A stretch of DNA of 24,000 nt from Clostridia bacterium. Its GTDB lineage: Bacteria > Bacillota > Clostridia > TANB77 > RGIG9151. This document shows, in pieces, positions 1 to 11,989 of the stretch (its first letter is position 1; every line of letters begins with the position of its first letter). A model generated the notes under the pieces. That model did no database searches, was not told where the DNA came from, and was given only the letters and a program-made list of their open reading frames with translations. The position numbers and the translations under genes are program-made. The stretch spans positions 32,800 through 56,799 of the forward strand of contig JAFSUW010000005.1 of assembly GCA_017450465.1 (NCBI GenBank), written 5' to 3'.

Positions 1-1231
1 GGAAACTTTGTACAACACCATGGTCAGTAATTGCAATAGCATTCCAGCCCCAATCAATAGCCCTTTTTAGCAAATCTTCGCATGAAGTAATTGCATCCAT
101 CTGGCTCATTTTAGTGTGCATATGAAGCTCAACACGTTTATTTTCAGCATCATCCATTCTTTTTTCTTCAGGAATTGGTGGCACATCAATTACAGTTTTA
201 GCAATTACAGTAACCTCTTTCGCAAATTCATCGTATCTTGCTGAACCCTCTACTCTTACTGCTTTTGCTTTATTTAACTTGCTAAAAACTTCTTCAGAAT
301 CCTCTTTCTTAGGAAAAAATTTACATGTTATTGTACTAGTTCTATCAAAAATATTAAATGATATTATATCGTTTTGTTTCTTACCTGAAACTAATTCTGG
401 ATTTAACAAATCGCCTTCTAAAACAAGTTTTAGCTCTTCGCCCATTTTTATTTCAGGAATATTTATAATTTTATAATAATCAGATTTTGTCCTTAAATTT
501 GCACCATAAATTAAAGGCGACTCCTCTCCTTTAACTTTTTTTATGGTAGAAAGTGTATTCTCTTCATGTTTTTCTGTAGTTATCTCAGTAAGTTTAGTGC
601 GTGCTACAATTGTTTTACCATCTTTAGTAGTTATAGTCTTTTTAGCTGGTACATCTTGTGGTTGATCTTGTTGCCTTTCCTGCTGCTCTTTATTAAGCTC
701 CTCTAAAACCACTTTTTCTTGAAGTTTATGCATATTGTTATACTTTTCTTCCAAATCTTCATCAGTAGCACATTCAAACTTAACAATATAATTTTTATTA
801 AACAAATTCTTAAAAATACGTGCAAAAACTAAATTCATCTTCTTGGCCTCAAGCATGTAATCTAGTTTATTAACAACACACACAGTTACCACATTTTTAT
901 CAATATTTAGTTTACTGTTTTGCAAAACAGTAGAAACAAATGGCTCTTTTCTGCCAATATACTTTAATAAATCCTTCCAAACAGAACTTAAATCTTCAGC
1001 AATTTCGACATCTTTATACTCAATATTAAACAAAGTCGAACTTAAGTTAAACTTCTTAATCGCATACTCTTCAAAAGAAATCATATCTTTAAGCGTAATT
1101 TGAGCATTAGAAACAATACTTATTTCAAGTATGTTTTTATCCTTATGCAAATTAAGATTTTTAATCTCGGCATTTATTAAATTATTATTCTCTATATAAT
1201 CATTAAATGTATCTTTAACAAGTTTTCCCAT
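1..1231 (-). CDS. polC: DNA polymerase III PolC-type alpha subunit, N-terminal part (continues past the left window edge)
   Basis: Open frame from ATG 1231-1229, with AGGAG at 1243-1239 and a 7-nt spacer. It begins MGKLVKDTFNDYIENNN and at the window edge reads RVELHMHTKMSQMDAITSCEDLLKRAIDWGWNAIAITDHGVVQSF, which is a PHP-domain signature of PolC. The ORF track omits it because it is truncated by the window. Confidence 0.88.
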   Translation of the reverse strand, partial: MGKLVKDTFNDYIENNNLINAEIKNLNLHKDKNILEISIVSNAQITLKDMISFEEYAIKKFNLSSTLFNIEYKDVEIAEDLSSVWKDLLKYIGRKEPFVSTVLQNSKLNIDKNVVTVCVVNKLDYMLEAKKMNLVFARIFKNLFNKNYIVKFECATDEDLEEKYNNMHKLQEKVVLEELNKEQQERQQDQPQDVPAKKTITTKDGKTIVARTKLTEITTEKHEENTLSTIKKVKGEESPLIYGANLRTKSDYYKIINIPEIKMGEELKLVLEGDLLNPELVSGKKQNDIISFNIFDRTSTITCKFFPKKEDSEEVFSKLNKAKAVRVEGSARYDEFAKEVTVIAKTVIDVPPIPEEKRMDDAENKRVELHMHTKMSQMDAITSCEDLLKRAIDWGWNAIAITDHGVVQSF

Positions 1232-1253
1232 TTTGCATCTCCTAACATTTTGT

Positions 1254-1282
1254 ATTTTATTAAAATAAAATTGAGATGTCAA
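1254..1282 (-). promoter_or_regulatory. sigma-A-type promoter for polC
   Basis: On the minus strand: TTGACA (1282-1277), 17-nt spacer, TAAAAT (1259-1254). The predicted TSS near 1247 lies only ~4 nt upstream of the SD. Confidence 0.5.
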
Positions 1283-1317
1283 AGGAACAAATTGTAATTT
1301 TTTGTATAAATATTAAA

Positions 1318-1512
1318 AATAAAAAACAAATAAAGCAAATTCATCACGAGAGTTTGTTAGCATTCCTCCAAAATGGCTTATGGTGGTCAAAAAAGCTGGA
1401 CGCTTTTTTGAGCGAGGATACGACATGGACGTCGTTTGTGAGCGACCACCATTTATTTTGGTTAGGAATGCAACAAACGAAGTGAAAGAATGAAGCGTAT
1501 TTGTTTTTTATT
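1318..1512. ncRNA. Candidate structured RNA (long imperfect rod, 6S-RNA-like in size and shape); strand unresolved
   Basis: Nested Watson-Crick helices: 1318-1332/1498-1512 (15 bp), 1340-1344/1490-1494, 1345-1347/1482-1484, 1352-1358/1472-1478, 1360-1366/1465-1471, 1368-1374/1455-1461, 1380-1388/1444-1452. Two apical hairpins sit at 1389-1409 and 1420-1435. The core 1340-1480 is visibly more GC-rich than its flanks. It lies in the gap between the pepD stop and the polC promoter. Confidence 0.45.
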
Positions 1513-1531
1513 ATTTGTATTTTAAAAATAT

Positions 1532-2902
1532 TTATATGCTAGAAAGTAATTTAACAACATACCCCCACATTCTATCAGCGGAACTAATCGACAACTTTTC
1601 ATTTGGGCTGTGCGCATCATAAATATTTGGAGCAATCGCAACATACTCGAGATTTTTTATCTTTTCGGCGAAAAAGCCACATTCAAGACAGGCCTGAGTC
1701 TTTATCTTCTTTATATCCTTACCAAAGCACTCCTTATAAACACTAGAACATTTACTAATTAAAGAATTATTCATATCAGGAAAATAACCCGCCATTTCAT
1801 CATATTCTTTTATTTCAATACCATTTTTACTCATTAATGTATCTATTTCCGTTTTTAACTTTTCGCCTAAATTTTTATCATTTGCACGAAGAGAATACTT
1901 AAATAAAATCTCGCACTCATCTTCTTCAATAGCACCCATATTAGCAGATAAAATTATATTATTCTCATCATCGTATGCACACACACCATTTTTGAAGTAA
2001 AAAACAAAATCTAATAATCTTTTAGTTAAACTTTGGCTAAAACATTTTTCACAAAACTGAATTTCACTTAAAGTTATATCCCCATAAATCTTATACCCTT
2101 CTATTTTTGAAATAAGAGTATCTAATTTTTCTTTAGTAGAAAAAGTTATAGCAAACTCCCTTGGTATTATATTTACTCTGCTACCACCCTTTACTTCATT
2201 AATGCAAACATCATACCCCTTAAGAAGTTCTGCTGCTAACTTAATAGGATTAACTCTAGTTTCGTCGCCTATATCTAGTCCTGAGTGTCCGCCCTTAAAA
2301 TTTTTTAATTCTAATTTGTATGTAACATAATCTTTTGGAGTATTCTCATACTCTTTTTTTGTCTTTGATATCCATTCTTTGCTATTTGAGGATGATACCC
2401 ACATAAAATCTTCTGAAAAGCAATCAAATGAAATTATTTTATTACTCATAAGTTTACTACTATCTATCATTCTTGCACCATTCATTGTAGTTTCTTCTTG
2501 CACAGTAAATAAACATTCAAGTGGTGGAGTTTCAATGTCAGAATCTAAAATGGCAAGCATATAAGCAACTCCAATGCCATCATCCGCACCCAGAGTTGTA
2601 CCACGTGCTTTTAAGAAATCTCCATCTACATATAAATCAAGACCCTGCGTTAAAAAGTCGTGTGCAACACCTAACTCCTTTTCACATATCATATCCATGT
2701 GGCTTTGGAGTATTATAAGTTCTTTATCTTCATTACCAATTGACGCTTCCTTAAAAATTATCACGTTATTTATAGCATCACGAAAGTATTTTAAGTTTCT
2801 TTCTTTTGCAAAATTTACTAAATAATCTGCAATTTTTTCTTCATTACTTGGTTTTCTTGGCACATTACTTATTTCATAAAAATAATTTAAATATGTTTTC
2901 AT
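1532..2902 (-). CDS. pepD: Aminoacyl-histidine (Xaa-His) dipeptidase, M20 family PepD
   Basis: 456 aa. PepD-like metal and catalytic motifs are present: LQSHMDM, KARGTTLGADDGIGVA, VQEETTMNGA, KGGHSG, DAHSPNE. SD GAGGAGGAG lies upstream, and the start overlaps the racemase stop (ATGA at 2899-2902). Confidence 0.85.
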   Translation of the reverse strand: MKTYLNYFYEISNVPRKPSNEEKIADYLVNFAKERNLKYFRDAINNVIIFKEASIGNEDKELIILQSHMDMICEKELGVAHDFLTQGLDLYVDGDFLKARGTTLGADDGIGVAYMLAILDSDIETPPLECLFTVQEETTMNGARMIDSSKLMSNKIISFDCFSEDFMWVSSSNSKEWISKTKKEYENTPKDYVTYKLELKNFKGGHSGLDIGDETRVNPIKLAAELLKGYDVCINEVKGGSRVNIIPREFAITFSTKEKLDTLISKIEGYKIYGDITLSEIQFCEKCFSQSLTKRLLDFVFYFKNGVCAYDDENNIILSANMGAIEEDECEILFKYSLRANDKNLGEKLKTEIDTLMSKNGIEIKEYDEMAGYFPDMNNSLISKCSSVYKECFGKDIKKIKTQACLECGFFAEKIKNLEYVAIAPNIYDAHSPNEKLSISSADRMWGYVVKLLSSI

Positions 2903-3654
2903 AAAATCTCCTCCTCATATTCAGCTTCATACTGCACAATTCCCAAAATTCTTGCACTGTTTTTCTCAACTTTTTGGGCATTTATGATAAAACCTGATGG
3001 CTGTAATATATCTAATTTTTCTTCGTCAAAAGCCATAAGAGTGGCTACTGTACCACTTCCACAAGCAGTTTCAAAAAATAGTGTATCTATACTTTTTACA
3101 AGTACAATTGGGAAAATTTTTAATGCCTTATCTGTTTCCTCTGTAAAAATCACGCCAACTGCCTTATCATCCACTTTTAAATTATCTATAATCTCTCTTG
3201 CTTTTTCTTTAATGTTAGTTAAATCACATAAATATTTTTCACTTTCATTTTCGTTTAATACAATGTGCGTAATACCTTCTATTTCAATAATTTTATAACC
3301 TTTATACTTTTTAACGCTATTTACTTTTATATCTGCGTATACATTACTGTTTTTATCTATACCCGCTTTTACTTTATCCGTCATACCAGAAACTTTAATA
3401 CTAATATTTCTATTTTTATTTTCTCCTAGATAATACAATGCTGCACATCTTGTAGCGTTGCCACAAAACTCTCCTCCAGCCATAGTAAGTTTATATTCTT
3501 TTTCACTTACAAAGCCCACTTGTTCAACACTTTTATGCTTATATAAAATAAAATCATTTATATGCTTTTTCTGCGCCTTTGTGTACCAGTCACCAATTAC
3601 TAATGCAGTCTTATTACCACTAGGGACATACAATTTGTACTTTACTTTTTCCAT
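2899..3654 (-). CDS. DapF-fold cofactor-independent two-cysteine racemase/epimerase (CntK/histidine-racemase-like); substrate unknown
   Basis: 251 aa. Motifs: PSGNKTALV near the N-terminus, MAGGEFCGNATRCAA (Cys64) and FFETACGSGTVA (Cys198). This is the two-domain, two-thiol pattern of the diaminopimelate-epimerase family. SD GGAGGA (3666-3661) precedes ATG 3654. Confidence 0.65.
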   Translation of the reverse strand: MEKVKYKLYVPSGNKTALVIGDWYTKAQKKHINDFILYKHKSVEQVGFVSEKEYKLTMAGGEFCGNATRCAALYYLGENKNRNISIKVSGMTDKVKAGIDKNSNVYADIKVNSVKKYKGYKIIEIEGITHIVLNENESEKYLCDLTNIKEKAREIIDNLKVDDKAVGVIFTEETDKALKIFPIVLVKSIDTLFFETACGSGTVATLMAFDEEKLDILQPSGFIINAQKVEKNSARILGIVQYEAEYEEEIL

Positions 3655-3678
3655 AAAAATTCCTCCTTTTTTGCATAC

Positions 3679-3712
3679 AAAAAAGCTATCTAGTTATACC
3701 TAGATAGCTTTT
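3679..3712 (-). terminator. Rho-independent terminator inside the 5' leader of the racemase-pepD operon (attenuator terminator)
   Basis: Minus strand reads AAAAGCUAUCUAG (3712-3700), loop GUAUAA, CUAGAUAGCUUUU (3693-3681), then UU G. This gives a 13-bp stem and an effective U6 tract, about 15 nt before the racemase SD. Confidence 0.7.
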
Positions 3713-3829
3713 ACCCATCGTAGGTATAACACAAATAGTGCTTATACCTACGAAATTTTCGTAAGTTTAAGCACTCCTACGATGATGCCAATTTGTATTA
3801 ATTAAAAATTTTAACATAATAATCACTCC
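3693..3829 (-). promoter_or_regulatory. Leader region with mutually exclusive RNA pairings (candidate transcription attenuator)
   Basis: Exact complementarities on the minus strand: 3752-3742 with 3729-3719 (11 bp); 3730-3721 with 3702-3693 (10 bp); 3784-3776 with 3724-3716 (9 bp); 3775-3768 with 3744-3737 (8 bp). 3765-3757 pairs with 3755-3747 (9 bp including one G.U). The motif UAGGUAUAA occurs twice and its complement once. Confidence 0.55.
3767..3817 (-). CDS. Candidate 16-codon leader peptide MLKFLINTNWHHRRSA
   Basis: GGAG (3829-3826) lies 8 nt upstream of the ATG (3817-3815). The codons are ATG TTA AAA TTT TTA ATT AAT ACA AAT TGG CAT CAT CGT AGG AGT GCT TAA. The tandem His codons (3787-3782) and the Arg codons overlap attenuator segment 1. 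Confidence 0.4.
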   Translation of the reverse strand: MLKFLINTNWHHRRSA

Positions 3830-3835
3830 ATATTT

Positions 3836-3864
3836 ATAATAATTCATATTATGTTTTATGTCAA
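3836..3864 (-). promoter_or_regulatory. sigma-A-type promoter for the leader/racemase-pepD transcript
   Basis: TTGACA (3864-3859), 17 nt, TATTAT (3841-3836). It starts immediately after the stop of the upstream gene. The predicted TSS near 3829 coincides with the leader GGAG. Confidence 0.45.
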
Positions 3865-3871
3865 GTATAGT

Positions 3872-5272
3872 CTATAATCTTGCTCTTTTACCAGTAGTCA
3901 AATTAACAACTTCATATACACCATTTCTAATACAATAAAGACTTCCTTCTTTAGTAACAAAAGCGTCACCATCTATAAAATCATAGATTTTTGTCATTTC
4001 GCCATTACTACTCATATAAAAATAGCCATCATTTATTGCACTTACTTTACCAACAGCCATTATTTTGTCTTTATCAGGGAAATATGTCGCTAAAACATAT
4101 AAACCATCATCAAAATAACCAACTACTCTTAAACTATTATAATCATTATACCTTTTATTAATTATTTCTAAATTTCCTTCTTTGTCGAGAATAGCTATCA
4201 TTCCAGCACTGTTGCTAAACTTACCTCCTAAGTTCCTATGATTTGAGCATAGATAGTATCCAACACTTGATTTATATACATTCGTTAACATTTGTGCTTT
4301 ATCCCAATCTACTACATTTTTCACAATATCTTTAGTTTCTACCAAAACATAATTTTCATATGGTGTATAAGGTGCTGGAATATGATCATCTAAATAAACC
4401 GTTAAACTAATAATATTTTTATCATCAAATTCCCAAATCTCACCGGAAAGACGTACATTTTCTCCTTCAAATTGTCCAAGATTCTCTACTTTTTTATCAT
4501 TGTAATAAACATAGCCATCTTCTAATTCAAAATTATCTGTAACATCTTCGGCAATTTTTTCTTCTCCCTTATAATCTGATGTTTCAGATTCATCAACCAA
4601 TATTAAACTATTAGAACTATAATCTAAACTGTAGTTATAATACTTTCTACCAGTTAGTGTGGATTCGATATCACCATCTTCATTTACTGTTTTGTCATAA
4701 ATATCCTTACATACTTGTAATTCTGCATTATTTTTATTTATTTTAGTTAAATACATTGGTGAAGTTCTATCCCTTGTATCTACTACAAGACCTTTTTCCT
4801 TACTATATGAAATTTGCCAACCGTACTCATCGTTTGCAAATCTCCATGTTAGTGGGAAATATGTTATATCCCTAAAATTCAAAACAGGGAATTCTTCTTC
4901 ATCATTGTCTATCTGTAAACCATTAATTATAATTGGATATCTTGCGATAGTCGCTTTATAAATTGTATCTTTTTTGTTAGAGCCCGCATAACTCTTATAT
5001 TCTTCGTTATTTCCTGCATAATTTGCTATATATAACCCATCAATTCTGTCCCACGAAATAACAAGTCCAACATTTTGACATAAAGAATATGTCATTGGGA
5101 AATATGTAATATCTTTATATACTACTAATGGATATAATTCCTTTTCATTATCAAAAACAAATTCATTTATCGTGGTTTTAAATGATGGTATTTTAACATT
5201 TACCTCATCAGCTGCATAACTTATATTTAAAATCAAAAAAAGGCAACAAATAAGTAATAATCCTCTCTTCAT
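3872..5272 (-). CDS. Secreted protein of unknown function: signal peptide, two stalk-like repeats, C-terminal Tyr/Gly-rich repeats suggestive of a beta-propeller
   Basis: 466 aa. The N-terminus MKRGLLLICCLFLILNISYA-ADE looks like a signal peptide. Internal repeat YPLVVYKDITYFPMTY / FPVLNFRDITYFPLTW resembles copper-amine-oxidase-N-terminal-like stalk repeats of clostridial secreted proteins. Later motifs recur: GYVYYND, GYYLCSN, DGLYVLATY, DGYFYMSSNG, GSLYCIRNG. SD AGGGTGA precedes the ATG. Confidence 0.6.
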   Translation of the reverse strand: MKRGLLLICCLFLILNISYAADEVNVKIPSFKTTINEFVFDNEKELYPLVVYKDITYFPMTYSLCQNVGLVISWDRIDGLYIANYAGNNEEYKSYAGSNKKDTIYKATIARYPIIINGLQIDNDEEEFPVLNFRDITYFPLTWRFANDEYGWQISYSKEKGLVVDTRDRTSPMYLTKINKNNAELQVCKDIYDKTVNEDGDIESTLTGRKYYNYSLDYSSNSLILVDESETSDYKGEEKIAEDVTDNFELEDGYVYYNDKKVENLGQFEGENVRLSGEIWEFDDKNIISLTVYLDDHIPAPYTPYENYVLVETKDIVKNVVDWDKAQMLTNVYKSSVGYYLCSNHRNLGGKFSNSAGMIAILDKEGNLEIINKRYNDYNSLRVVGYFDDGLYVLATYFPDKDKIMAVGKVSAINDGYFYMSSNGEMTKIYDFIDGDAFVTKEGSLYCIRNGVYEVVNLTTGKRARL

Positions 5273-5291
5273 AAAAAATCACCCTACGTTT

Positions 5292-5300
5292 ATTATATCA
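5292..5300 (-). promoter_or_regulatory. Extended -10 promoter element (TGATATAAT) for the secreted-protein gene
   Basis: Minus strand TGATATAAT matches TGnTATAAT. The predicted TSS near 5285 is at the first base of the SD AGGGTGA. Confidence 0.4.
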
Positions 5301-5342
5301 TATTGAAACCATTTTTCCATTACAAATTTATTACATTTTTCA

Positions 5343-5876
5343 TCAAATTTTGTAACATCTTATTTCACAATTTACCTGATAAAAATCAGTTATTTCTCCT
5401 ATATCTGTTATATTATTTAAATAAACATAAATTGCTCTTGCTATGTCTCCATGAGTTACAAATAACACATTTTTATCTTTATATTCTTTTTTCACATCTT
5501 CAATTAAACTTCCTACTCTTCTTAAAATACTTTTCATACCTTCAGAATCTTCGTATACTACTTCTTTTGTTATATCATGCCACAAGTTTCTATCTAGTTT
5601 TGTTACTGGTTCAAACTGCATTTTACCAGCGTTTCGTTCTATTAGTCTTTCATCATAAATTACTTTTACATTATTTTTATTTATTATTTCACAAGTCTGT
5701 TTAGTCCTTTTTAATGGCGAACAAATAATAACATCTAAATTTATTTTTGCTATTTCTTCTTTCATAGCATTTGCTTGCTCTATACCTACTTCATTTAATT
5801 TATGTTCGTTCCATGCATTAATTAAACCATTAACGTTTTCATCTGTCTGGCCATGCCTTATTACATATAAATTCAT
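5343..5876 (-). CDS. Histidine phosphatase family protein (phosphoglycerate-mutase-like)
   Basis: MNLYVIRHGQTDEN contains the RHG catalytic motif, and a THG motif (LFVTHGDI) occurs later. I moved the start to ATG 5876 because AAGGAG (5889-5884) sits 7 nt upstream. The track start at 5894 lacks an SD. Confidence 0.8.
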   Translation of the reverse strand: MNLYVIRHGQTDENVNGLINAWNEHKLNEVGIEQANAMKEEIAKINLDVIICSPLKRTKQTCEIINKNNVKVIYDERLIERNAGKMQFEPVTKLDRNLWHDITKEVVYEDSEGMKSILRRVGSLIEDVKKEYKDKNVLFVTHGDIARAIYVYLNNITDIGEITDFYQVNCEIRCYKI

Positions 5877-7120: not shown

Positions 7121-8392
7121 TTAATTATAAATTTTTTCCTCCCTTACTATATAGTTCTCATATGGTAGAATATATTGCCTGTCACATTCAACAACTATAT
7201 TTATATTTTCATCATAGTCTACTTTTATGACATTACCATGCTCTCTTAAAAATGCTTCGACCTTTGTCATATCGTAAGGAAGTGCTAAAGTATATTTCCT
7301 ATAACTTTTAAAAATCTCACTACAAACTTTATTTACAACTTCATCAATGCATTTTGTATTATTAGCGGAAATATAAAGTATGCCTGGCTCTTTTATTCGC
7401 CTTTTTATATTTACTTTGTCACATTTATTATATACTAATATTTCAGGAATACCTTTTACTCCGATATCCATTAATACATTTCTCGTAATTTCAATTTGGT
7501 CTCTATAATTTGGGTTTGAATAATCAACAACATGAAGTAATAAATCAGCTTCACACACTTCTTCAAGAGTTGAACGAAACGCTTTTACCAAAAATGTTGG
7601 TAACTTACTTACAAAGCCAACAGTATCAACAAATATAACTTCCTTGTTACCAGGAAACTTAATTCCTCTTGCCGACGTTTCAAGCGTTGCAAATAACATA
7701 TCCTTTTCCAAAACTTTTTTCTCATCGTCTTCTTTATATTTATCGACAATTGAATTTAATAATGTAGATTTGCCCGCATTTGTATATCCAACTATCGCAA
7801 CAGTAGGTATCATATTTTTCTTTCTTCTACGTCTTTGCGTTTTTCTAACTGATACTAACTCTTGCAACTCTTTATTCAAAAATGTAATTTTTTTCTCAAT
7901 CGCACGTCTATCTAATTCTAACTTCTTCTCACCAAGACCTTTGTTACTAGCGCCTCCACTACCGCCACCATACTGTCTTCCAAGCGATTCACGAAGTCCT
8001 ATTAACCTTGGTAACATGTAATTTAATTCTGCGATTTCAACTTGTAACTTTGCCTCTTTTGTTTTGGCTCGTCTTGCAAATATATCAAGTATCAAAATTG
8101 TTCTATCAATAACTTTACATGGTATTATCTCTTCAAGATTTCTAATATTCGAATGTGTAAGTTCATCGTTAAATATTACTGCATCTATACTTTCACGATT
8201 TACAATGTTTTTTATTTCATGTGCCTTACCTTCACCTATATAGGTTGCCTTATTTATACTTTCTAAATTTTGTACTACAACATCTACTACCTCTATATTA
8301 CATGCTTCGGCTAAGTTCTTTAACTCTTCCATCGAATATTCAAAATTTTCATCTTCTATAAGTTTTACACCTACTAAAATTGCTTTTTCCAT
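7121..8392 (-). CDS. hflX: GTPase HflX
   Basis: HflX N-terminal domain plus G motifs GYTNAGKST, DTVGF and NKCD. I moved the start to ATG 8392 (MEKAILVGV), which has GGAGG at 8401-8397. The 26 extra codons in the track overlap the tRNA gene. Confidence 0.9.
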   Translation of the reverse strand: MEKAILVGVKLIEDENFEYSMEELKNLAEACNIEVVDVVVQNLESINKATYIGEGKAHEIKNIVNRESIDAVIFNDELTHSNIRNLEEIIPCKVIDRTILILDIFARRAKTKEAKLQVEIAELNYMLPRLIGLRESLGRQYGGGSGGASNKGLGEKKLELDRRAIEKKITFLNKELQELVSVRKTQRRRRKKNMIPTVAIVGYTNAGKSTLLNSIVDKYKEDDEKKVLEKDMLFATLETSARGIKFPGNKEVIFVDTVGFVSKLPTFLVKAFRSTLEEVCEADLLLHVVDYSNPNYRDQIEITRNVLMDIGVKGIPEILVYNKCDKVNIKRRIKEPGILYISANNTKCIDEVVNKVCSEIFKSYRKYTLALPYDMTKVEAFLREHGNVIKVDYDENINIVVECDRQYILPYENYIVREEKIYN

Positions 8393-8409
8393 AGTTCCTC
8401 CATATATTT

Positions 8410-8484
8410 TGGCACCCCGAACAGGAATCGAACCTGCATTAACGGAACCGGAATCCGTTGCCTTATCCATTAGGCCATCGGGGC
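8410..8484 (-). tRNA. tRNA-Arg (anticodon CCG)
   Basis: 75 nt, GCCCCGA-UG-GCCU-AAUGGAUA-AGGC-A-ACGGA-UUCCGGU-UCCGU-UAAU-GCAGG-UUCGAUU-CCUGU-UCGGGGU-GCCA. A full cloverleaf can be drawn, the T-loop is UUCGAUU, and the 3' CCA is encoded. Anticodon loop UU-CCG-GU. Confidence 0.9.
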
Positions 8485-10363: not shown

Positions 10364-11989
10364 ATGAAAAAAATTATTTCATTAATCATGGTAATGGTTT
10401 TAATTTTAAGTTGTTCTTCTTTCTCAATGGCAGCAAATAGTGGTAAAACAACTTACTTAAAACTAATTCAGAGTGACATAAAGGCACTTAACAAAGTTTC
10501 AAATAGCTACAATTTCTTAGCTGACACAAATTACAAAACTCAAAGACAAACTGTAGAAATTTATGGAGAAAATTTACCGCTTGAATTTTCAAACTTAAAA
10601 CTAACCACCCTTGAAGAAGAGGACAAAACAAAGAATTATGATTACGCGAAAGTAACCTTAGGGACAAGAGAAACTGAAAAATTAAACGTTCATGTTTCTT
10701 TTCAAAACAACGTTTTAAGAATGCAAATTCCAGAAATTTACGATAAAACAATTGTAATTGATTTTAACGACTTAAAAAATCTTTGTGAGAAGTTTGAAAT
10801 AGATCTTTCAGAAGAAGAAATCAATTCTATTATAGCTATGCTTTCAAATGTAAATAAGGGTTCAGTACTCACAAAAGATGATGAAGCATACTTAAAAAAA
10901 GTTTCTAAAGAATACGCAAAGAAAATCACTAATTTATTAAATGATAAATATTTTTCTTCAAAAACATCTGATTCTATAATTTATAATGGGAAAACAGTAA
11001 AATGTAAATCTGTAACTCTTGAACTACCTATGTTAGATGTTTATGGTATATTAAACGAAATTTTAAAAGATGTAAGAAGCGATGAAAAACTATTAACTAT
11101 ATTTGCTACTTCTATGGCAAGTAGCGGTAGACCAGTTACCAAAGAAGAAATCATAGACGGAATCGATGAGTATTTAGAAGATTTAGAATACTCACTAGCA
11201 TATATGACTGACGAAAAAATTGTTTCTACATATTATTACAATAACAAAAATGAAGTATTAAAAAGAGAAATATCTGTAATAACTGATTATGATACTGCTA
11301 AATTAGGTTTTGTAGCAATAAAAAATAAAAAAGACGCTTATTATGAACTAGAAACAGATAATCTTTTAATAAAAGATTATGTAACTATAAATAGCAAAAA
11401 AGAAAATCACAGTATAGAATTTAACTTAATTACCGAAAAAGTCGACTGGGAAGCTTACGGTGAAGTTAGTGACATGTATTATGATTACATGGATGAATAT
11501 TATGATAGTTATTATGATGCTTATGATTCATATAGCGATTTTGTAGAAAAAAGATACAATATTGTATATCCTAATTATTCAGACTATCAAATTAAAGAAA
11601 CAACAACTTACAACGCTAATTTACTAATTGAAACACTTGATAAATATACTACTTCTTATACATTTACCGTAAAGGATAACCCAAATTCAGTTAAACTAGA
11701 TATTTATAAGAACCAAGCAAATAAAAATAAACTTATTTATAACTTAAAACTAGCCGTAACTTATAACTACAATGAATATAAATTATACGTAAATTCAACA
11801 ACTGAACGTGGCTTAAAAATCACACCAAGAATATTTGCTAGCGAATTAAAGATTAACAATTTATCAATTGATGAATTAATAGCTGAATTTGATCCAAAGC
11901 GTGAAGAAATACTCCAAAAAATCACTAATATATTCAACGAACTTTTCCCTACTTCAAGCGAACTTTTGCAAGAAAAAATTGGTCTTTAA
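10364..11989 (+). CDS. Putative lipoprotein / secreted protein of unknown function
   Basis: 541 aa. The N-terminus MKKIISLIMVMVLILSCSS has a lipobox-like ILSC. SD AGGAGG is 8 nt upstream. Contains a Tyr/Asp low-complexity patch DMYYDYMDEYYDSYYDAYDSYSDF. I recognised no catalytic motif. Confidence 0.65.
   Translation: MKKIISLIMVMVLILSCSSFSMAANSGKTTYLKLIQSDIKALNKVSNSYNFLADTNYKTQRQTVEIYGENLPLEFSNLKLTTLEEEDKTKNYDYAKVTLGTRETEKLNVHVSFQNNVLRMQIPEIYDKTIVIDFNDLKNLCEKFEIDLSEEEINSIIAMLSNVNKGSVLTKDDEAYLKKVSKEYAKKITNLLNDKYFSSKTSDSIIYNGKTVKCKSVTLELPMLDVYGILNEILKDVRSDEKLLTIFATSMASSGRPVTKEEIIDGIDEYLEDLEYSLAYMTDEKIVSTYYYNNKNEVLKREISVITDYDTAKLGFVAIKNKKDAYYELETDNLLIKDYVTINSKKENHSIEFNLITEKVDWEAYGEVSDMYYDYMDEYYDSYYDAYDSYSDFVEKRYNIVYPNYSDYQIKETTTYNANLLIETLDKYTTSYTFTVKDNPNSVKLDIYKNQANKNKLIYNLKLAVTYNYNEYKLYVNSTTERGLKITPRIFASELKINNLSIDELIAEFDPKREEILQKITNIFNELFPTSSELLQEKIGL

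Follow-up and report, generated by a model that had tools for sequence, protein, structure and literature searches.

A predicted histidine leader-peptide attenuator upstream of a racemase-dipeptidase operon in an uncultured Clostridia bacterium

The stretch of DNA analysed in this study (the window, 24,000 nt; contig JAFSUW010000005.1, positions 32,800 to 56,799) belongs to a metagenome-assembled genome (MAG) of an uncultured Clostridia bacterium. On its minus strand, to which all leader coordinates below refer, a gap of 217 nt separates a 466-amino-acid (aa) open reading frame (ORF), ending at 3872, from a 251-aa racemase ORF, starting at 3654 and followed by a gene for a PepD-like dipeptidase. 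The locus raises the question of what is encoded in this gap and which signal it passes on to the two genes. An earlier note, made from the letters of the window alone, had described it as a leader-peptide attenuator with His codons. According to our analysis, the gap very probably contains a ribosome-mediated leader-peptide transcription attenuator sensing the supply of charged tRNA-His. The supporting data were obtained by computation: the elements recognised in the sequence are conserved and covary, the His codons are kept in relatives, and the computed fold depends on the position of the ribosome.

Leader anatomy and alternative folds

The leader is preceded by a sigma-70-type promoter (3836-3864) composed of the -35 hexamer TTGACA (3864-3859), a 17-nt spacer, and the -10 hexamer TATTAT (3841-3836). 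The promoter matches 11 of the 12 consensus positions and is the top promoter-like site within 1200-5600. The transcription start site (TSS) was predicted near 3830-3828, about 12 nt 5' of a 16-codon leader ORF (MLKFLINTNWHHRRSA plus stop, 3767-3817; TAA at 3769-3767). Its ATG (3817-3815) is located 8 nt downstream of the Shine-Dalgarno (SD) sequence GGAG (3826-3829); relatives have AAGAGG, AAGGAG, or AGGATG at the equivalent place. The leader ORF contains two His codons, CAU (3787-3785) and CAU (3784-3782), followed by two Arg codons, CGU (3781-3779) and AGG (3778-3776). These elements, as well as the pairings and the terminator given below, all lie where the earlier note had placed them.

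Several mutually exclusive structures can be formed by the segments that follow, which are designated seg1, seg1', seg2, seg3, and seg4 in the order of transcription. The 5' strand of helix P1, CAUCGUAGG (3776-3784), consists of the last His codon and the two Arg codons and has its partner at 3724-3716; in the fold model it would act as the anti-antiterminator, holding the 3' half of seg3. The P2+P3 hairpin (3737-3775), detected both as an inverted repeat and in the minimum free energy (MFE) fold, has a free energy (dG) of -19.9 kcal/mol and includes P2 of 8 bp, where AGUGCUUA (3775-3768) pairs with UAAGCACU (3744-3737), and P3 of 9 bp, where CUUACGAAA (3765-3757) pairs with UUUCGUAGG (3755-3747). 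In the alternative seg2:seg3 helix (3718-3753), UCGUAGGUAUAA (3753-3742) forms 12 bp with UUAUACCUACGA (3729-3718). The antiterminator (3693-3730) is built from GUUAUACCUA-C-GAUGG (3730-3715), the loop GUAAAAG (3714-3708), and CUAUC-UAGGUAUAAC (3707-3693). It comprises 15 bp with one bulged C and occupies 8 of the 13 nt of the terminator 5' arm, the entire terminator loop, and the first nt of the 3' arm. The intrinsic terminator (3679-3712) consists of AAAAGCUAUCUAG (3712-3700), the loop GUAUAA (3699-3694), and CUAGAUAGCUUUU (3693-3681), with a U6 tract at 3684-3679, and is found 25 nt 5' of the racemase ATG. The dG values are close, namely -16.8 kcal/mol for the antiterminator against -17.2 kcal/mol for the terminator hairpin (3712-3681), with -19.9 kcal/mol for each of P2+P3 and seg2:seg3, and the alternative folds are thus energetically balanced. 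The earlier note had listed a weak antiterminator of 10 bp with a small overlap of the terminator stem among its doubts; the 15 bp and an energy equal to that of the terminator remove this objection.

In an inverted-repeat search, seg1/1':seg2 (19 nt, 89%) and the terminator arms (16 nt, 94%) were recovered, together with the exact repeats seg2:seg3 (12 bp), seg3:seg4 (10 bp), and seg1:seg3 (9 bp). The MFE of 3832-3672 was -54.6 kcal/mol, compared with -28.1 ± 3.2 kcal/mol for 200 dinucleotide shuffles (z = -8.2; none as good), and the corresponding fold is a stacked rod of P1 (9 bp), P2 (8 bp), and P3 (9 bp), then the terminator. A simple terminator scanner listed no terminator in 1200-5600, though the hairpin is clear from folding and inverted repeats; our guess is that the maximal stem absorbs four of the terminator U's.

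In the proposed mechanism, transcription would start about 12 nt before the ORF, CAU CAU would lie immediately 5' of the P1 5' strand and overlap it, and seg3 (GUUAUACCUACGAUGG) would choose among three mutually exclusive partners. When His is scarce, a ribosome with a His codon in the aminoacyl (A) site would cover the P1 5' strand and spare P2+P3, keeping seg2 locked. The free seg3 would then form the 15-bp antiterminator with the top of the terminator 5' arm and the loop, allowing readthrough into the racemase and pepD genes. When His-tRNA is plentiful, the ribosome would reach UAA and melt P2+P3, seg2 would take seg3 in the 12-bp helix, and, with seg3 captured, the terminator would fold and transcription would end at the U6 tract. 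In the absence of a ribosome, the P1-P2-P3 rod would form first, and termination would then be a matter of kinetics. Stalling, termination, and readthrough themselves are inferred, and so is a physiological role in His limitation, during which His would be released from Xaa-His dipeptides and D-His converted to L-His.

Conservation and covariation of the leader

The leaders of five further contigs with an identical racemase are 100% identical to that of the window and are, as such, uninformative for comparison. The metagenome collection was scanned with the RNA-core pattern GTAGGTAYARGYN{5,17}RTRCCTAYRAT, which was derived from seg2 and seg3 alone and includes no His codons. The pattern gave 86 matches, 56 of which had a terminator, and a mini-ORF was present about 20 nt upstream in all terminator-bearing matches whose upstream DNA is available. 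The 29 matches in unrelated sequence had neither a called terminator nor such a mini-ORF; one more locus (surveyed loci carry L numbers), L168, had no called terminator owing to an interrupted U-run, yet its mini-ORF reads ...HIHHHRKRACS. The ORF and SD were conserved across 54 distinct full-length leaders (the window, GTDB, and metagenome sequences), and 52 of them contained an HH, HHH, HQH, or HYH run at the same position. Since the search pattern was free of His codons, this conservation is not circular. Relatives retaining the hairpins therefore also keep the mini-ORF and its His codons, a point on which the earlier note had staked its reading beforehand, and the exceptions carry Cys codons: L117 has N-C-C-C and a PALP/CysK-like gene downstream, and L157 has H-R-C-C (...HRCCRNT plus stop). 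The Cys version of the scaffold in L117 (1328-1547) encodes MNKKYIVNCCCTS plus stop, with UGU UGU in the P1 5' strand; a second mini-ORF in this locus, MNGICCTYLI plus stop, is located just before the SD of the PALP/CysK-like gene (1572-2531).

A second survey covered 80 racemase-homologue loci from GTDB (628 kb, both strands). A strict detector, requiring an ATG with SD, 6-40 codons, two or more His codons in a row, and a terminator no more than 190 nt away, found 30 candidate HH leaders, of which 28 were situated on the same strand upstream of the racemase gene or its operon. The control doubled codons were distributed upstream/elsewhere as follows: QQ 0/3, NN 5/3, KK 2/8, DD 0/1, and YY 0/1. 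The GTDB leaders fell into several types: that of the window, ...LHHH[R/C]RSL plus stop; a classical four-segment type, ...HHVW...; a type ending in ...HLLIRH plus stop (..HHNxxHLLIRH); and a short ...NHHH... type in Patescibacteria. The structurally unrelated HHVW, HLLIRH, and NHHH leaders have only the His run and the terminator in common. All four closest traceable racemase homologues (49-53% identity) are preceded by His leaders. One of them, L172, has the leader MKLFINIFNLHHRRST plus stop, with two His and two Arg residues (...NLHHRRST), and a racemase-M20 peptidase operon like that of the window. The leaders of L173 and L176 end in ...NLHHHRRSA plus stop, and L177 belongs to the structurally different HHVW type. 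A PepD homologue adjoins the racemase in only one of the 80 GTDB loci (L033, in reverse order), which made the alignment of racemase-pepD orthologues impossible at scale and left L172 as the one true equivalent of the window.

A promoter of the form TTGACA-like/17 nt/TAnnnT was located 18-37 nt before the leader ATG in 48 of 51 family members. The leader module travels with the downstream gene: across more than 60 loci, the genes on its upstream side are unrelated. These data bear on the explanation that the gap holds an unregulated structure, either the terminator of the upstream 466-aa gene with chance hairpins or a constitutive partial terminator. The end of the upstream gene at 3872 with no other terminator before 3712, and the presence of the terminator in all full-length equilibrium folds, would agree with it; however, the terminator is positioned downstream of a near-consensus promoter and a mini-ORF, the module follows the downstream gene in the above loci, the fold is far from random (z = -8.2), and the alternative pairings are conserved and covary. 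We regard such an unregulated structure as extremely improbable.

Covariation was assessed in two alignments, A3 (43 leaders, MAFFT) and A4 (the window's subgroup, 9 sequences), the latter made separately because the window's own terminator is misplaced in A3. For P1, P2, and the terminator taken together, 93.8% of the A3 cells were paired, with 12 double-changed pairs (0/500 shuffles as high; slid controls 27-46%), and in A4 the values were 91.2% and 9 pairs (1/500 shuffles as high; slid controls 25-49%). Compensatory double changes occur in 4 of the 8 P2 pairs in A4, P1 pairs in 92.6-93.9% of cells with C-G/U-A/U-G covariation, and the terminator helix has 9 of 12 covarying pairs in A3 and 4 of 12 in A4. 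The seg2:seg3 helix is the RNAalifold consensus of A3; in A4 it was paired in 97.2% of cells, with 2 double-changed pairs (74/500 shuffles as high; slid controls 25-45%). For the antiterminator, 81-92% of cells in the two alignments were paired, with 1 double change (79-171/500 shuffles as high; slid controls 29-48%). The check for covariation of the hairpins proposed in the earlier note thus gave covarying P1, P2, terminator, and seg2:seg3 helices and a nearly invariant antiterminator. In addition, a three-way covariation was observed: GUAGG is preceded by C or U in both seg1 and seg2, and this nucleotide changes together with the G or A in seg3, as expected if seg3 pairs alternately with seg1 and seg2. 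In other lineages, the antiterminator is formed by different complementary sequences, as read by eye in L006, L035, and L081.

The pairing data also concern the possibility of a ligand- or protein-dependent attenuator (a riboswitch, T-box, PyrR-type, or HutP-type UAG-binding system) with an incidental mini-ORF. The GUAGG/UAG motif recurs three times in the leader, HutP recognises UAG repeats in response to histidine, and a weak PyrR match was obtained in 3600-3950 (E = 0.05, 28.1 bits). However, the PyrR alignment covers mainly the terminator, and its score stays well below the gathering score (54). Nearly all of the P1-P3 rod is paired, leaving no conserved unpaired nucleotides for a ligand pocket, and a single strand (CCUAC) in seg3, with its three alternative partners, accounts for the recurrence of GUAGG. 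Moreover, the ORF, SD, and His run are conserved, and Cys replaces His before the CysK-like gene. Rfam searches of the whole window at the gathering score gave only tRNA and TwoAYGGAY, and neither His_leader (RF00514) nor T-box (RF00230) nor PyrR (RF00515); on 3600-3950 with E up to 10, the best match was PyrR, below threshold, with no T-box; and upstream of the racemase in 18 related loci, no family reached the threshold and no T-box was detected. Taken together, these results make a ligand- or protein-dependent device very improbable.

HutP-type antitermination was considered separately and rejected. The B. subtilis hut site of HutP has two sets of three UAG triplets with 4-nt spacers and overlaps the terminator; the UAGs of the window are at 3778, 3749, 3702, 3692, and 3688, with spacers of about 26, 44, 7, and 1 nt. 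A hutP gene was not seen among the window proteins. The operator consensus of the TrpR-family regulator HisR, cacTTTAnnnnnnTAAAgtg, was not seen by eye at the window promoter.

Some of the surveyed leaders showed additional features. In L006 (about 2240-2630), tandem attenuators precede one racemase gene; the first is ...NNCHHVW... with a strong terminator, and the second is window-like (...WHYHCRRT plus stop), with seg2:seg3 extended to about 28 bp and an antiterminator that was never predicted. In most ...LHHHRRSL-plus-stop leaders (e.g., L089, L100, and L153), the terminator is nested in an outer repeat, ATAGATATA / TATATCTAT, which lies 30-40 nt either side of the terminator and is followed by a second U-run; the arrangement suggests a double terminator and is not present in the window. 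The loci L040, L053, L054, L059, L067, L068, L073, and L080, from Patescibacteria and some 'Gammaproteobacteria' MAGs, contain short His mini-ORFs and terminators about 100-250 nt upstream of the racemase start (~4000); an example of such a mini-ORF is MTFRFTQNHHHEPA plus stop in L055. The same group of loci has promoter-overlapping palindromes TATTAAC-N2-GTTAATA, sometimes duplicated, which look like the operator of an unknown repressor; the published HisR consensus does not fit them.

Ribosome position and the choice of fold

The effect of the ribosome was modelled by equilibrium folding of transcripts cut before the terminator 3' arm, with 26 nt masked (A-15..A+10). The probability of the CCUA:UAGG core was used as the readout; an earlier metric, pairing of the terminator 5' arm to anything upstream, was too noisy. 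When codons -3 to -1, counted from the last His, occupied the A site, the median antiterminator probability was 0.97-0.99, and it exceeded 0.5 in 49-52 of the 54 leaders. The median was 0.29 on the last His codon itself (>0.5 in 22/54) and about 0.00 from +1 to the stop codon (>0.5 in 5/54 at +1 and 1/54 at the stop). Without a ribosome, the family median was 0.27, with values above 0.5 in 21 leaders. In the window, the antiterminator probability was at least 0.99 on H11, H12, R13, and R14, 0.31 on S15, and 0.00 on A16 and the stop codon; for 3' footprint edges between A+7 and A+16, neither His codon gave less than 0.99, and the stop gave 0.00 throughout. A ribosome on His leaves P2/P3 in place while seg3 pairs with the arm of the terminator, and with the ribosome at S15, A16, or the stop, the seg2:seg3 helix is the MFE fold. 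Both translated states proposed in the earlier note, a stalled ribosome giving the antiterminator and a ribosome at the stop giving seg2:seg3, were thus reproduced by constrained folding. In most leaders, the modelled loss of the antiterminator coincides with the end of the His run, which is the strongest in-silico support for the mechanism.

The same calculations can be used to weigh an alternative in which the leader is a dual or general sensor of translation speed. The operon would then be induced equally well by a ribosome stalled on the Arg codons (CGU AGG) or slowed anywhere before codon 15, and the signal would be a shortage of Arg or of aminoacyl-tRNAs in general instead of histidine in particular. 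Such a sensor would account for the window value of 0.99 with the A site on R13 and R14 and for the antiterminator obtained in all leaders when the ribosome is held upstream of the His run (codon -3 median 0.97); AGG is, besides, often rare in low-GC Firmicutes. It is at odds with the finding that 49 of the 54 leaders no longer form the antiterminator once the A site is on the codon directly behind the His run (+1 median 0.00); the three closest relatives behave likewise for footprint edges A+10 and beyond. The CGUAGG sequence is constrained by P1 pairing with CCUACG, and the same positions encode other residues elsewhere in the family, namely Cys-Arg, Ser-Arg, Tyr-Ile, or Ile-Val. In addition, the His run is common to otherwise unrelated leaders, and the regulated genes are His-related. 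A dual or general speed sensor is, on balance, an unlikely explanation.

Several points weigh against assigning the window leader to His-specific attenuation. All the evidence is sequence-based and the organism is uncultured. The leader has only two His codons, which the earlier note had counted among its weak points; L172 also has two, as do several other members (HHIVGDL, HHVW). Only about 1-5 nt separate the SD from the predicted TSS, which is at the lower limit of what the family shows; the geometry, with 18 nt between promoter and ATG, recurs in L020 and L023 and is still unusual. The antiterminator complementarity is conserved but near-invariant, and, as its columns hardly vary, covariation is silent there and speaks neither for nor against it. 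Full-length equilibrium folds retain the terminator in every ribosome state. Folding of the full leader under ribosome masks, recommended as a check in the earlier note, did not discriminate between the states for this reason and was replaced by the folding of cut transcripts; the switch must be kinetic, decided before the terminator 3' arm is made, as in classical attenuators. Without a ribosome, the window RNA forms the antiterminator with a probability of 0.96. The claim that lack of translation leads to termination is accordingly not supported at equilibrium and would require kinetic trapping of P1, which is the MFE fold once transcription reaches the terminator start. The Arg codons R13 and R14 of the window are also within the zone where a stall permits readthrough, so the specificity for His follows from the family and not from the window sequence alone. 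Finally, a crude ribosome scan of several non-type-A leaders (L045, L047, L060, and L034) showed no clear switch; it was mixed overall and was not used as evidence.

Regulated genes and relation to known systems

The first gene behind the attenuator (2899-3654, minus strand), with its own SD GGAGG (3666-3662), encodes a 251-aa CntK/HisR-like cofactor-independent racemase. It was matched by the NCBIfam models His_racem_CntK (4.8e-23) and HisR (2.5e-20), with 82 and 73 bits against curated cut-offs of 300 and 400, and by the Pfam family PF26317 (CntK_N). The closest solved structures are HisR and the S. aureus 'diaminopimelate epimerase' entries 6L4L/6JIS, which we take to be CntK. The catalytic Cys64 and Cys198, as well as Glu44, Glu62, and Glu195, are invariant among 36 homologues, and N14 and N66 are conserved too. 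The equivalents of the three Glu residues have been proposed to bind imidazole in CntK/HisR (PMC11602996). Beyond identical copies, the next racemase homologue has only 53% identity. The protein is probably a histidine racemase, of a third uncharacterised clade beside CntK and HisR. The amino-acid racemase of the earlier note thus remains a racemase and is assigned more specifically, which strengthens the His logic of the operon.

The second regulated gene (1532-2902, minus strand), whose start overlaps the racemase stop by 4 nt, encodes a 456-aa M20 Xaa-His (beta-Ala-His) dipeptidase, PepD-like, exceeding the TIGR01893 cut-off (372.7 bits against 343.75) and matching Pfam Peptidase_M20. With genes for a histidine-racemase-like protein and an Xaa-His dipeptidase, the operon is plausibly histidine-related.

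The same leader type also precedes hisS, HisRS::racemase fusions, hisZ-hisG-racemase::GNAT operons, and a hisC-like aminotransferase gene, as well as amino-acid ABC transporters (among others in Lactococcus taiwanensis, L060), an amino-acid ABC binding protein, M20 peptidases, VanX-like M15 peptidases, and GNAT. Since the leader is shared with His-related genes, the window operon can be considered one member of a His-starvation regulon.

Fusions and recurrent neighbours of the racemase were observed among these loci. Single ORFs of 687-707 aa comprise a complete HisRS paralogue (tRNA-synt_His and the anticodon-binding domain) fused to a CntK-like racemase; they are found in L011 (2711-4774), L100, L122, and L153/L156 as the first ORF after the leader, all behind His leaders. 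In L030, the HisRS paralogue and the racemase are encoded by adjacent separate genes. To our knowledge, no HisRS-racemase fusion has been described. The racemase is fused C-terminally to a GNAT domain with a ...PPY[NCS]E.. motif in L029 (2004-3470), L038 (3965-5329), and L025 (3971-4915). A stand-alone GNAT gene is located directly behind His leaders in at least nine metagenome loci (e.g., L106) and adjoins the racemase gene in L047. A VanX-like Peptidase_M15 of the D-Ala-D-Ala-dipeptidase family adjoins the racemase in L025 (3192-3878), L034 (2142-2831), and L176 (2446-3135). Racemase and dipeptidase thus form a recurring pair, with M15 paralleling the PepD-like M20 enzyme of the window and L172.

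These associations allow us to propose, tentatively and at slightly less than even odds, an unrecognised histidine-salvage module induced by His-tRNA shortage. In such a module, third-clade CntK/HisR-like racemases converting D-His to L-His would be repeatedly coupled or fused to PepD-like M20 or VanX-like M15 dipeptidases, a HisRS paralogue, and GNAT. The module would occur in uncultured gut/rumen Clostridia, some Bacilli, and Patescibacteria, and its scaffold would have been retargeted from His to Cys. The value of the element is that of a functional label, indicating that the racemase and dipeptidase are wanted when charged tRNA-His is scarce; it points to His salvage from dipeptides and D-histidine and gives the racemase family a testable role. 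The physiological role of HisR has been stated to be unclear (PMC11602996), and the salvage module, if true, would be the first physiological rationale for HisR-type racemases.

The earlier note had regarded leader-peptide attenuation as uncommon in Firmicutes. Nevertheless, His leader peptides have already been predicted there in two studies (PMC2965389, PMC9413887), and one of the published groups is related in sequence to the window leader. His-leader attenuators of his operons were predicted for the B. cereus group, Peptostreptococcaceae and Lutispora, and Erysipelotrichales (Ashniev et al. 2022, PMC9413887). The leader sequences from Additional file 6 of that paper were searched with an nhmmer profile of the window subgroup. 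The scores were 21.1 bits for the T. glycolicus (Terrisporobacter) leader, which covers model positions 25-179 of 180, and 16.5 bits for that of Lutispora, over nearly the full length, the best of 600 shuffles reaching 2.3 bits; the Acetoanaerobium sticklandii leader of the same published group was not matched by this profile. According to these matches, the window element belongs to that still unnamed family, which is absent from Rfam. A related predicted his attenuator also exists in Clostridioides difficile. The published group and the window are alike in having a short ORF that contains a His run, with its end within or beside the first helix, the core ...[CA]TAG[GA]TAYAAG.. / ..TGTAGCTATGATGGGTA.., and a terminator containing TAGG, and both were predicted from sequence. 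They differ in their targets and extent: the published group comprises hisZG... biosynthesis operons in five cultured species with 3-5 His codons, whereas the window has a racemase and Xaa-His dipeptidase operon with two. The words 'racemase' and 'dipeptidase' do not occur in PMC9413887. With the survey, an RNA motif published from five genomes grows to more than 60 examples of diverse sequence, enough for an Rfam-type family.

For the Bacillus cereus group, Naville & Gautheret (2010, PMC2965389) had likewise predicted His leader peptides, located before hisZ and a hisS paralogue. These leaders, compared here by architecture, share His-codon attenuation in Firmicutes with the present family, as well as the hisZ and HisRS-paralogue targets, but belong to another host clade, with no racemase or peptidase targets reported.

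The enterobacterial hisL (Rfam RF00514) and trpL leaders are alike in that translation of a leader ORF with tandem codons selects the antiterminator or the terminator. hisL has seven His codons, whereas the window has two and no Rfam match; E. coli trpL works with two tandem regulatory codons. The classical hisL/trpL design uses four segments (1:2, 2:3, 3:4), to which the window adds a layer (P1, P2+P3, 2:3, antiterminator, and terminator). Unlike in the classical design, the stalled ribosome must spare the downstream hairpin, and the end of the ORF is five codons beyond the His run. T-box(His) riboswitches respond to the same tRNA-His charging signal with the same termination/readthrough output, and their targets include hisS, his operons, and His transporters (PMC9413887); they bind the tRNA directly, whereas the window would rely on a translating ribosome and has no T-box match. 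Cys-codon attenuators are known from the leaderless Cys small ORFs of mycobacteria (bioRxiv 10.1101/834739) and from the upstream ORF uORFC-8-2 before cysS (PMC8632094). They share the idea of Cys-codon sensing with the L117 variant, but the scaffold and host clade are unrelated, and the variant matters here solely because it speaks for a scaffold that works by reading codons. The exchange of His-His-His for Cys-Cys-Cys within one scaffold, a natural change of specificity, argues cleanly for such codon reading. The mechanism is that of textbooks and its occurrence in Firmicutes had already been predicted, so the element represents no new principle; what is new is the set of target genes, how large and diverse the family is, and the variant retargeted to Cys.

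Other features of the window were also recorded. The 466-aa ORF directly 5' of the attenuator promoter (3872-5272, minus strand) and a 541-aa ORF (10364-11989, plus strand) had no Pfam or NCBIfam match. A TwoAYGGAY RNA (RF01731) was identified at 1345-1485 on the plus strand, where it scored 46.2 bits (gathering score 43). It faces the 3' end of the pepD-like gene in convergent orientation, and an ORF of 69 aa, called mechanically, overlaps it. A tRNA-Arg(CCG) gene (8410-8484, minus strand) overlaps the 5' end of the called HflX-like ORF (7121-8470), and the true HflX start is probably further downstream than called.

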